Position numbers: made by a program. A stretch of 64,000 nt of DNA from Escherichia coli. Lineage in GTDB: Bacteria > Pseudomonadota > Gammaproteobacteria > Enterobacterales > Enterobacteriaceae. The stretch lies in the NCBI RefSeq assembly GCF_050920415.1, contig NZ_CP169309.1. One strand, written 5' to 3'. Numbering within the stretch: the first letter of the stretch is position 1; each line of letters begins with the position of its first letter. Of this stretch, positions 15,701 to 18,700 are shown piece after piece.

Positions 15701-18700
15701 AAGGTGCGGTTGAGTTAATCATCTGCAACGCGCGATCTTCCAGTGCTGCCGGAACTAAAAGGAATTTAGGCGCAATATTCAGCACTTCGCCATTTTTGTC
15801 CTTCTGTGTGCGCATCAGGTGACGTGCTGCACTAAGTCCCGGTGTTGTCAGTCCTGCTTCAATCAGGTTGCTGTGTTTTTTGTCAAACAGCGCTATTCCA
15901 TCAGAAAGTTTTACGTTGCCTGTAAGCACCAGATTAACCAGATTTCCCACCGTTCTTGATGCTGCACGGCCCATAGCCATTGGCACCGTTGATAACTGAT
16001 CAAGGTCATCATTGATTATCGCCTGGCGGGTAATGCTGAAAATATTCCCGTAAGTAGCCAGCGCGATGGGTTCACCGCGATCGCTGGTGGTGATGTATTT
16101 ATATTCTGCCCCTTCCGGCACTTTGTTTAACGTAGAGAAACCATTCAGACCAACGCGGCGGGCTTCACGAAAGTTTGAAAGGGAACCTTTTTTCGTCCAC
16201 TGGCGGAATGTTTCGCCGCTGTGCTCCCAGCCTGCAAGCACTGATTTTTCAGCACCACCAGCAAGGATATCGGTAAAATCGCTGCTGCTGTGGTTGAATG
16301 CCGCGTTTACTATCTGCGAGCGTGTTCCGTAGCTGCCCGTGCTTATACCACGATGGGTTAATGATGCCTGTGCCATATCGAAAAGGCTCATCATGGCGTA
16401 AGGATTACCGCGTTCGGCCCGTTCGTGACCAAGACGCGCATTAAGCCCCTGGCGCATTGCATCGCCGGTTATGTTGCCGTTATCCGTGTACGCGTAGTAA
16501 AGATTTGCGGGGGTGGTTTTATTTGTTGGCGTTGATTCTTTACCCATAGCGAGTAAAAGGCGTTCGCGTGCATTCTCAACGCTACATTCTGAATCAGCAA
16601 GACAACTTATAGCCAGGTCGTTATATCTTCCGTTGAACGTGCCAAACAATTCACGGATGCCGTTAAGTCGTTCCTGTTCGCCACTGCCAGTTTTCTGGCT
16701 GATCATGCTTTTAATTTTTTCCGGCATATTTGAAAAATCTCCGATTCGTTTTGATTCAATTCGGGCCATTGCTGTAATCGCGGGTATAACCTCATCTGCG
16801 AAGCCGTTAGCCTTACACTCATTGCCATCCATCCAGGTTTCCGCCTCCATCATGGCGGTGATTTCCTGTTTGCTCCTGCCCGTTCTTCCGGCGTAGGTTT
16901 CAGCCATCGTGTCGCCCAGCTTGTCCATCAGGTCAGCAAAGCGGCGAACGTCGCCCGACACTCCGGCAGTAACACCACGGGGGGCATGTATCATCATCAT
17001 TGCGTTTTCAGGCATAACGATGTGATCGCCACACATGGCAATAAACGAGGCCATAGAAGCCGCCATGCCTTCAATGTGTACAATTTTCTTTGCCGGATGA
17101 TTTTTCAGGGCGTTATAGATAGCCAGCCCTTCAAAGATGTCGCCACCAGGTGAATGGATGCGAAGATGGATTTCAGACGCATTACCACACGCGTTGATCT
17201 CGTCAGTAAGTGCCGATGCTTTTACACCGTACCCGCCGATCTCGTCATAAATGCGCACATAGACAACATCTGCCATAGCCTTAATGGAAAACCATGTTTT
17301 CATAGCCAGGCTCCTAACGTTGCCCTGTACCAGTATTCAACCGCGCTGCGTGTGATTTGTCCTTTCGTGGGTACCGGCATACCCGGGTGATTGTCTTTGA
17401 TGAACTGCTGATAGCGTTCGATCTTCTCCATAGTTCCGGCGTCTATGTGTACCGTGGCACTTTTATCCGGCTTTCTGGTGTTGTTCTCTGGCATAAATCC
17501 GCCTCCGTTTTGATTAACGGGCATCATTATTGATCGATAAAAGTAATAGATAAATCATTTTCTACCTGAAAATTAGATTATATTTTTTCTGATTATTCTC
17601 AGAGAGGCAAAGCCATTGACGCATTTTTGCTATTGAAGCAATATTAAGACTCGTCATCCTGGCGATAAAAACTCCTTTGTCGTGTAAAAGCGCCTCCGGT
17701 AACAGCAATCGAGGGCGCTTTTTTTTGCGCCTGTTTTTTTGTAAATGTTTTCGGGAACGCTCCAGTGATGAACAAAAAACAACCTGATTCGACACTAAAA
17801 ATTTTTATTCCTCAATATATCAATAACTTATAGTGGTGGTGATGGTGCCATAAAAATCAAAAAATGCGCCTTTTTCCGCGCCCGCCCGCCCCGTGGACAG
17901 GCCCACCAAGCCAGGAGTACCTACAAAAAAGCCGGATTGCTCCGGCTGTGTGCTCACTTCTTCGGTTATTCTCCAGCGCTTTTAACGTTGATGGTTGTAA
18001 CCTGTTCCGCTTCGGCAATCTCCCATTCTGTCAGCGTGGCAAAGTTTGCCGCCGCTGTGGTCATGAATGCGCTTATCAGGTCGGGATGTGCTTTCGCGTA
18101 TCCTTCCCCCGTGTTGCGGTCGATGATTTTTATCGCCACTCTCAGCCAGTGCTCTGTAAGGTCAATGGCGCGGTTATGCTGCTTCTTCTGATTATTAAGT
18201 TTTCCTGATGTGCGCATTTTTATTTTTACCCCCTCGTTTAAAAAGTTTTGAGTTGTGCCTCCCCTTGTCTACCTTATCTACCTTACTGGCCACCATGCCA
18301 GTAATGGCGCGGCTTTCAGTGGGGTAGAGTGCTTTTATCCACTATCTACCCCGTATCTACCTCCCTGTCTGATTCAGGTAAAATCAGGTAGAGAGGGTAG
18401 ATAGTAGGTAGACAGTAAAAAAAGGCTGTCTACCCAAGTTAATGTACTGAATTAAATGTATTTTTCTTTACTCAGGTAGACAGGGTAGACAGCCATTGCA
18501 ACAAATTATAAAAACGCGTCGCAATCGTCTGTTGTTATTGCGTTAGTCTGCGTTACTCCTTTAACTTTCCGCGTAATATATTCATGTCCGTAAACTTTCG
18601 CGGCTGGCTTCATAGCCTTGCCAAAGTCATTTACGTTTAGCGGTTTGCTCCTGCCTGCGTACGCCATAAACGCCAGATAGACGCGGTAAAGGCTGTTTCT

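Follow-up and report, generated by a model that had tools for sequence, protein, structure and literature searches.

The locus described here raises the question of which RNA is ended by a strong intrinsic terminator that lies on the plus strand of a region whose genes are all read from the minus strand. The locus belongs to Escherichia coli contig NZ_CP169309.1 (assembly GCF_050920415.1), of which a stretch of 64,000 nucleotides, called the window below, was analysed. Positions 13.6-24.3 kb of the window are a Gram-negative phage-inducible chromosomal island (PICI) of about 10 kb with its main genes all on the minus strand, and the terminator stands between the island's packaging site cos1 (17762-17929) and the operon that contains the island's own capsid gene. 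An earlier account made from the DNA letters alone (the sequence-only reading) had suggested a small RNA of 80-100 nucleotides (nt) at this place. The present analysis indicates that a discrete plus-strand RNA is, in our judgement, probably made at the locus. It also leads to the more tentative proposal, held with slightly less than even confidence, that this RNA acts in trans to repress translation of the capsid gene of the island's helper phage.

The features expected of an intrinsic terminator, namely a GC-rich stem-loop followed by a run of U on the transcribed strand, are found on the plus strand at 17686-17726. The stem of 9-10 bp is formed by GCGCCTCCGG (17690-17699) and CGAGGGCGC (17710-17718) and runs directly into a T8 tract (17719-17726), and an A4 block (17686-17689) pairs with the first Ts of that tract, which lengthens the stem by an A4/U4 extension. 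Folded as plus-strand RNA, the 81-nt stretch reaches -24.9 kcal/mol (z = -2.7), and the commoner allele, in which A17712 is replaced by G so that the only stem mismatch is repaired and a 15-bp stem results, reaches -30.9 kcal/mol (z = -4.4). The minus-strand RNA of the hairpin is weaker (-15.4 kcal/mol, z = -1.0) and is followed by only U3-U4, and a G-U pair of the plus-strand stem becomes a C-A mismatch on the minus strand. Coordinates, fold energy and strand asymmetry thus agree with the sequence-only reading in making this a good plus-strand terminator. An overlapping second hairpin, GGGCGC-T8-GCGCCT followed by T7 (17713-17740, plus strand, repeat family D4), is a predicted back-up terminator. 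A search of IMG/VR with the hairpin pattern returned only the same islands and three chance terminators. The flanking genes do all lie on the minus strand, as had been noted (15414-17303, 17300-17494, 17966-18217 and 18506-20254), and no plus-strand gene upstream that the terminator could serve was found in the annotation or the open reading frames (ORFs) of the window.

The elements upstream of the terminator are best read against related islands, in which the intergenic region occurs as three lineages: T1, which includes the window and most other islands; T3 (contigs L040 and L043-45), which retains cos1 and the capsid promoter block at high identity and has a predicted RNA gene only about 60% identical to that of T1; and T2 (L007, L008, L041 and L042), which has unrelated sequence at the RNA site. 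The hexamer TTGACG at 17616-17621 (plus strand), which precedes the hairpin by 68 bp and the T8 tract by about 100 bp, had been picked out as a plausible -35 element, and this choice has held up, since it has a -10 partner 17-18 bp away (17639-17645, plus strand; CAATAT with a 17-bp spacer or AATATT with an 18-bp one) and is the top promoter-like site of the intergenic region. Promoter-like sites are not in excess by a crude consensus scan, which gave 3 where 5.6 were expected. With a weight matrix the site scores 10.7 bits, a value attained by 31 of about 128,000 window positions (top 0.024%) and exceeded on neither strand within 17480-17980, and a promoter this good within the 70 positions suitably upstream of a given terminator has a chance expectation of about 1.7%. 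The corresponding scores are 9.9 bits for the common T1 allele (CAGTAT) and 12.3 bits for T3 (CACAAT); A at the second and T at the sixth position of the -10 hexamer are constant in all three. The -35 hexamer is TTGACG in all T1 variants and TTGACT in T3 despite differing flanks, and the 17-bp length of the spacer is the same in both lineages with 7 of its 17 bases different. A promoter of its own at the right distance and kept in relatives, as a stand-alone small-RNA gene should have, is therefore present as a consensus match of predicted activity.

With a start at 17649-17653, placed from the -10 element, and an end within the T8 tract at 17719-17726, the predicted and unannotated small RNA (17649-17726, plus strand) would be about 70-78 nt long, or roughly 75. 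The comparison supports the idea of a short plus-strand RNA with its own promoter and terminator, which is probably right; the predicted length is below the 80-100 nt first proposed. The further proposal that the RNA is antisense to the leader of the capsid operon is not supported. The conserved capsid-operon promoter-like block (17520-17600, minus strand; -35 TTTATC at 17554-17549, -10 AATAAT at 17531-17526, and a second -10-like TATAAT at 17582-17577) occupies the opposite strand, downstream of the promoter of the RNA gene. The RNA gene and capsid transcription are thus probably divergent, and the RNA overlaps capsid transcripts only given read-through from upstream. This block, which we infer to act as the promoter of the capsid operon, scores 8.3-9.8 bits with the weight matrix and is kept even in T2 islands that have no RNA gene. 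A separate observation is that the block contains TCAGGTAGA (17564-17572, minus strand), the same 9-mer that opens the origin repeat TCAGGTAGA(G/C)AGGGTAGA at 18384-18404 and 18472-18492. T2 islands carry ATGATAGAA in its place whatever their replication protein, which makes a link between the promoter 9-mer and the initiator protein doubtful.

At the 3' end of the RNA, the hairpin with its U7-U8 tracts is the only part that fits an Hfq-binding module, and any role of Hfq is putative. A 5' hairpin has a similar shape in T1 and T3, and its stability is not significant relative to shuffled sequences (p = 0.09 and 0.25); it was dropped as evidence of RNA structure for that reason. RNAalifold applied to a MAFFT alignment yielded no usable covariation.

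The evidence for a target comes from complementarity. A search of the retrieved DNA for complements of the predicted RNA gave a 12/12 match between CUCCUUUGUCGU (17672-17683) and ACGACAAAGGAG in the helper prophage of the O157:H7 strain H6437. The stretch concerned, CTCCTTTGTCGT (17672-17683, plus strand; pairing stretch 1), is thereby complementary to the Shine-Dalgarno (SD) region of the helper prohead protease/capsid gene. Co-folding added pairing stretch 2, TCGTCATCCTGGCG (17651-17664, plus strand), which is predicted to pair with codons 2-6 of that gene and with its GUG start. The predicted target is thus the SD sequence and GUG start of the helper's prohead protease/scaffold/capsid fusion gene, which lie within the 3' end of the portal gene, and in the co-folded structure the pairing spans -18 to +17 of the start, which is roughly the ribosome footprint. 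A conserved complement to a translation initiation region, the seed expected of a trans-acting RNA of the Hfq type, is present.

The predicted net binding energy to the helper start site is -20.6 kcal/mol for the T1 RNA and -21.0 kcal/mol for the T3 RNA. When the 68 start sites of phage 1720a-02 are ranked, this one comes first for both RNAs (means -7.0 and -5.6, standard deviations 3.4 and 3.3). Energies this low are not attained by any of 400 plain shuffles, and when the anti-SD motif is kept the observed energy is reached by 2 of 1000 shuffles for T1 and 1 of 1000 for T3. Phage 1720a-02 contains no other complementary match as long as that to ACGACAAAGGAG; a 12-mer is by itself unremarkable, since 10% of shuffles have one somewhere in the phage. 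The match is unusual for its position and for the second helix, not for the 12-mer alone. The start sites of the island itself are left unmatched, at -7.9 kcal/mol for its capsid gene and -5.8 kcal/mol for the small ORF that precedes it. An RNAduplex scan of the phage genome was also made and discarded, because long spurious duplexes dominate its output.

Comparison of the lineages shows which parts of the locus have been kept. The elements common to T1 and T3 are TTGAC(G/T), the 17-bp spacing, a CAnnAT -10 element, the terminator with T8 and the second hairpin, together with two sequence blocks: TTAAGACTC(G/A)TCAT around the predicted start, and the 10-nt core TCCTTTGTCG of pairing stretch 1, which is identical in the two lineages. 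In the second helix, the core (17657-17664) differs between T1 and T3 at five positions, each by a transition after which the bases still pair (for example C-G to U-G and G-U to A-U), T3 gains four extra pairs (UGAC with GUCA), and the most diverged stretch between the lineages, 17665-17671, is the one opposite the internal loop of the target. Among 28 T1 variants only one of the 40 columns of the RNA body (17649-17688) is variable, compared with about 6.6 expected at the surrounding non-coding rate, and this is the lowest diversity of the region, below that of the neighbouring coding sequence. The 271-bp stretch 17495-17765 is present at full length, with at least 94.8% identity, in 143 of 5426 complete E. 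coli genomes; 38 further islands were drawn from IMG/VR by way of the 64-residue ORF at the head of the capsid operon. A gapped-pattern scan of metagenome and genome collections gave, among the matches listed, one real extra copy (L298), the others being chance matches.

The distribution of the target among helpers can be set beside that of the island. Binding is predicted at -18 to -21 kcal/mol for the group formed by 1720a-02, CP-1639 and Stx2 phages and is weaker in distant helpers (-11 and -17.5 kcal/mol for mEp460 and cdtI, -9.7 and -13.7 kcal/mol for mEp213), and this gradation parallels the identity of the helper cos to the island's cos1. The target motif occurs in 112 IMG/VR contigs and the junction in 530 of the 5426 E. 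coli genomes (about 10%), and the phage records that have the motif include Shiga-toxin (Stx)-converting phages. Island and target are found together in one composite prophage in O157:H7 H6437 and in two IMG/VR contigs. The SD sequence and GUG start are invariant in eight phages, and in mEp460 and mEp213 this is the sole start that includes the conserved SWFRMQA motif, from which it follows that the GUG is the true start of the helper gene; no start other than AAGGAGG-N5-GTG, within the 3' end of the portal gene, fits these two phages. As a point of annotation, RefSeq/PGAP and several phage records (L004 3184-3229, where L004 is the H6437 segment; L092; L089) start the helper fusion gene at least 45 nt too far downstream.

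The mechanism that these results suggest is that a stand-alone small-RNA gene forms an accessory cassette of one E. coli PICI family, placed between cos1 and the capsid operon. Transcription from a promoter of sigma-70 type (TTGACG, 17 bp, CAATAT) would begin near 17649-17653 and end, by way of two tandem intrinsic terminators, at 17719-17726; the product, about 75 nt in length, would have an extended U tail at its 3' end. The 5' half of the RNA would pair in trans with the initiation region of the helper fusion gene, one stretch covering the SD sequence and the other the GUG and the next five codons, and the pairing would block ribosome binding so that less helper capsid is made. The island's diverged capsid homologue would escape through its different start site and its coupling to the small upstream ORF, and the RNA gene may plausibly have arisen as an antisense copy of a captured helper start site. 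The sequence features, their conservation and the complementarity are what the comparisons show; that the RNA is transcribed, pairs with its target in the cell, represses it or depends on Hfq is what we infer. The fullest form of the proposal, that this is the first RNA-based interference among PICIs, in which a constitutive RNA blocks the helper fusion protein while the island's capsid homologue takes over the formation of heads and in which the RNA began as an antisense copy, is held more guardedly than repression itself.

Several observations weigh against this proposal. Related T2 islands lack the RNA cassette entirely, which makes the cassette accessory rather than part of the island core, and they show no match of at least 8 nt to the helper start site. 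The conservation argument is shallow, since it rests on just two diverged lineages of common ancestry. The -10 hexamer is weak, with 3-4 of 6 positions matching the consensus; part of pairing stretch 1 lies in the 3' arm of the weak 5' hairpin, itself no stabler than shuffled sequences; contig L039 has a C to A change at a predicted paired base; and no helper variant (GTCAGCGACAAAGGAGG) that would compensate the single T3 mismatch was found in IMG/VR. Those strains with published Hfq or RIL-seq maps that could be checked lack the locus, and the island is not present in the parts of O157:H7 Sakai searched for use of its Hfq-CRAC map (1.775-1.825, 1.88-1.93 and 1.944-1.973 Mb). Capsid genes are dispensable for transfer in the model island EcCICFT073 (PMC6092414, PMC10111431). 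Finally, the complementarity could be a relic of a portal/protease junction that was captured along with the capsid gene.

The last of these points is the main threat to trans repression of the helper. If it applied, no functional RNA would exist, the match would be a decaying remnant of the phage junction, and the terminator would be bidirectional and would serve mainly to keep minus-strand transcripts that leak through cos1 from reaching the capsid promoter. Since the capsid gene of the island is a copy, now diverged, of the helper gene (51% identity at the protein level), adjoining sequence could plausibly have been captured as well. The hairpin folds on the minus strand too with U4 after it, and T2 islands have a true minus-strand terminator (GCCGGATTTTTTCCGGC followed by T6) at the cassette position, directly upstream of the conserved capsid promoter block (about 3090-3130 in L007 and L008). 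However, phage similarity ends abruptly on both sides of the start site without any trace of portal or protease coding sequence, a neutral remnant should neither vary less than coding DNA nor change only in ways compatible with pairing, and the features that tell the strands apart, a G-U pair and tracts of U8 and U7, speak for the plus strand, the minus version having U3-U4 only. Because of these sharp boundaries, the very low variability and the strand-specific features, the relic explanation is weakened, and it is considered distinctly unlikely. Slightly less improbable, though still unlikely, is an explanation in which the RNA is made and has no target in trans, its role being local. Transcripts that run through the site on the minus strand, coming from the replication operon or from late transcription of the helper, would then be interfered with or cut by RNase III; in a variant, the locus may stop stray plus-strand transcription from the AT-rich promoter region before it enters cos1 and the origin. 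The placement of two tandem plus-strand terminators immediately before cos1 suits such a role, as do the full complementarity of the RNA to any minus-strand read-through transcript and the need for helper late transcription to cross the site in helper-embedded islands, and the T2 minus-strand terminator at the same place suggests that insulation of the capsid promoter matters. What a local role leaves unexplained is that the RNA body is the least variable part of the region, and that conservation coincides precisely with the match to the helper start, with bounds near the ribosome footprint (-18 to +17).

Two other explanations carry far less weight. The hairpin and its T and A tracts might act in the DNA as an island-specific packaging part, for example as a terminase or IHF binding site or a bending site by cosB. 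The site lies 35-75 bp past the phage-like cos sequence, GCGC-T(5-8)-GCGCC recurs beside the presumed cosN in both cos copies (repeat D4), and the cos sites of EcCICFT073 are without a phage-like cosB; but no such hairpin follows the second cos copy, the T2 sequence here is unrelated, and the promoter and the match to the helper start are both left without an explanation, so that a packaging role is regarded as very improbable. Least credible of all is a small minus-strand gene of 31 codons (17657-17562, MTSLN...), perhaps a type I toxin with the plus-strand RNA as its antitoxin. Its frame is open, with equal length and the same stop, in the window and T3, and an AAGGAG stands upstream that the plus-strand RNA would cover together with the ATG; against this, a TAA stands at codon 14 in roughly half the T1 variants, the commonest allele among them, the T1/T3 differences are even over the three codon positions (7, 8 and 10), the AAGGAG is 17-20 nt from the ATG, and the peptide has no hydrophobic helix and no match to a PHROG family. 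The pair was rejected as a type I toxin-antitoxin system on these grounds, since with the stop, the lack of codon bias and the lack of a helix there is no conserved small hydrophobic ORF.

Repression of the helper in trans, the reading preferred here, has to be placed in the element that carries the RNA. The sequence-only reading had compared the locus with P4-like elements, a comparison that is not supported: the host element is not P4 but a Gram-negative PICI that has cos sites and has captured a capsid gene, and the Rfam models, which include the C4 RNA of P1/P4 type, give no match. The features by which PICIs are recognized are all found, namely a unidirectional arrangement of integrase, AlpA-like gene, primase and origin, a cos site in common with a lambdoid helper, a captured capsid gene and a length of about 10 kb. 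This assignment rests on annotation, layout, iterons, cos homology and the tRNA-Pro that adjoins the integrase gene, with induction and transfer being predicted, and the layout agrees with published PICI descriptions (PMC6092414, PMC10111431). In island order the genes, all on the minus strand, are the integrase (22830-24089), which adjoins tRNA-Pro(ggg) (24290-24366); a small AlpA-like gene between integrase and primase; the primase (18506-20254), followed by origin-like DNA; an 83-residue ORF (17966-18217); the 64-residue ORF (17300-17494) that is first in the capsid operon and ends in a stop codon overlapping the ATG of the capsid gene; the island's fusion gene for a ClpP-like prohead protease and major capsid protein (15414-17303); and, last, a 93-residue ORF and PerC. 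The 64-residue ORF matches phrog_4934, a family of unknown function, and its use as an anchor for distant relatives revealed none outside E. coli. The fusion protein encoded at 15414-17303 has about 40 residues fewer than that of L004 1205-3229 in the linker/scaffold part between the protease and capsid domains, a difference that might affect capsid size or co-assembly.

The capsid operon is enclosed by two cos-like sequences. The first, cos1, is shared with helper-type lambdoid phages, being 90% identical to the stretch of 1720a-02 and CP-1639 between the lysis genes and the small terminase gene, and its match in mEp460 falls at the genome end. The second, cos2 (15229-15408), follows the capsid gene and contains direct repeats D1 and D10. 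As direct copies (15229-15408 and 17770-17947) the two are 79% identical over 98 nt, have GAACAAAAAACAACCT in common, and flank the small ORF and the capsid gene at a distance of 2.5 kb from each other. Read along the minus strand, each opens with the intrinsic terminator of the preceding transcription unit, that of the upstream replication operon having been located at 17930-17947 (minus strand) by a hairpin scan. In EcCICFT073 a captured capsid gene likewise lies between two cos sites (PMC6092414). T2 islands carry an additional DUF1441 (small-terminase-like) gene after the capsid gene.

Directly downstream of the primase gene, the region 18270-18500 is dense in TATCTACC / GGTAGATA iterons and contains long inverted repeats, and it is presumably the replication origin of the island; the same region produced spurious microRNA-like matches in a permissive Rfam scan. 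Only the part of the island with the replication and late functions (13642-20561) has a counterpart, at 98.6% identity, in islands inserted between clpS and cspD in other strains, and the integrase/regulatory module differs from theirs, which places mosaic boundaries at 13642 and 20561 and, given the differing integration module beside tRNA-Pro, indicates that modules have been swapped between islands of different integration sites. In O157:H7 H6437 (L004, 1883691-1901957) the same island family lies within the large terminase gene of a lambdoid prophage, which is split in two, an arrangement that corresponds to the helper-embedded type of PICI (PMC10111431); the host prophage has its own cos, 84-85% identical to that of the island, and also has the predicted RNA target. 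Elsewhere in the island, a tandem pair of 41-nt repeats at 14792-14876, each with the palindrome GCAAATTTGC, stands between a plus-strand ORF (about 14451-14750) and the 93-residue ORF in what looks like an operator arrangement, and two further compact terminator-like hairpins (GGCCATCGTGACAGGTGGCC-TTTTCTTT and GCGCTCCGGCAACGGGGCGC-TTTTTGTT) occur on the plus strand at 21950 and 22074, antisense to a 367-codon minus-strand ORF (21001-22104). In host DNA beyond the island, a leader of ribosomal protein L25 (RF03131, 46.9 bits) was detected at 28084-28109 on the minus strand.

The interest of the proposal lies in the kind of effector that it would add. PICI-type satellites are known to counter their helpers with proteins, which redirect packaging, control capsid size and repress late genes, and an RNA effector has so far been reported only for the unrelated Vibrio satellite PLE. 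If the proposal is correct, Gram-negative PICIs would possess a cheap, sequence-programmable way of shutting down the helper capsid gene, and there would be a reason why many such islands keep their own capsid gene although transfer seems not to require it. The helper family would also be identifiable from sequence alone, because cos identity and RNA target agree. Since the target motif is present in about 10% of complete E. coli genomes and in Stx-converting phages, carriage of the island could, in addition, influence the production of Shiga-toxin phages.

As far as can be judged from sequence, the predicted RNA belongs to no described family and is new for PICIs among the small RNAs of mobile elements. 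Rfam 15 at gathering thresholds (including C4, AgvB, AsxR, Esr41, IsrK and STnc100) places no family at the locus, and a permissive scan gave only matches with E-values of 0.9-8 that fall far below threshold (ctRNA_p42d, at 16.7 bits compared with a threshold of 50, snR75 and STnc410). The published PasA-D probe sequences are absent from the locus, fragments of the locus do not occur in the supplement of a 2026 preprint, and a full-text literature search for locus sequence fragments matched no paper of the library searched. The small RNAs known from enterohaemorrhagic and enteropathogenic E. coli (EHEC and EPEC), taken from the EcOnc and Pas tables, were considered and set aside, since the comparable sequences and probes are unrelated.

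Likenesses to known systems are accordingly ones of form or function. The C4 RNA of P1/P7 and the CI immunity RNA of satellite P4 are also short and pair through short complementary blocks near a ribosome binding site or leader. These RNAs are cut from a leader transcript of the same strand and control the operon of their own element, whereas the present RNA would have its own promoter and terminator, lies on the opposite strand, matches a gene of the helper and has no Rfam match, C4 included. Closest in form are the Hfq-dependent small RNAs of EHEC and EPEC prophages (AgvB, AsxR, the EcOnc series, PasA-D and Esr41), which are short (50-240 nt), end in strong U-tailed terminators, are often convergent with the lambdoid late operon and occur in the same pathogenic E. 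coli; their sequences are unrelated, however (there is no Rfam match, and the PasB and PasC probes and EcOnc12 differ), and they target small RNAs or mRNAs of the host, none having been reported to act on a phage capsid gene. CapR of PLE, which represses the helper capsid promoter, and Ccm of SaPIbov5, a capsid homologue, resemble the proposed system in that the helper capsid is cut or replaced while the satellite has a homologue of its own, but both are proteins that act on transcription or assembly, while an RNA acting on translation is proposed here.

The closest system in function is SviR, a small RNA by which the Vibrio cholerae satellite PLE reduces the translation of a helper structural protein (Dunham, Angermeyer and Seed; 10.1101/2022.04.08.487710), and it is the only reported case of RNA-based conflict between satellite and helper that was found in the literature search. 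Both RNAs are encoded by satellites and act in trans on the translation of a helper structural protein, as an experimentally established property of SviR, which acts on PLE transcripts too, and as a prediction for the present RNA. Satellite family, host and helper are unrelated in the two cases, the likeness drawn is one of function, and the present, predicted RNA matches the start of the capsid gene of a lambdoid helper.

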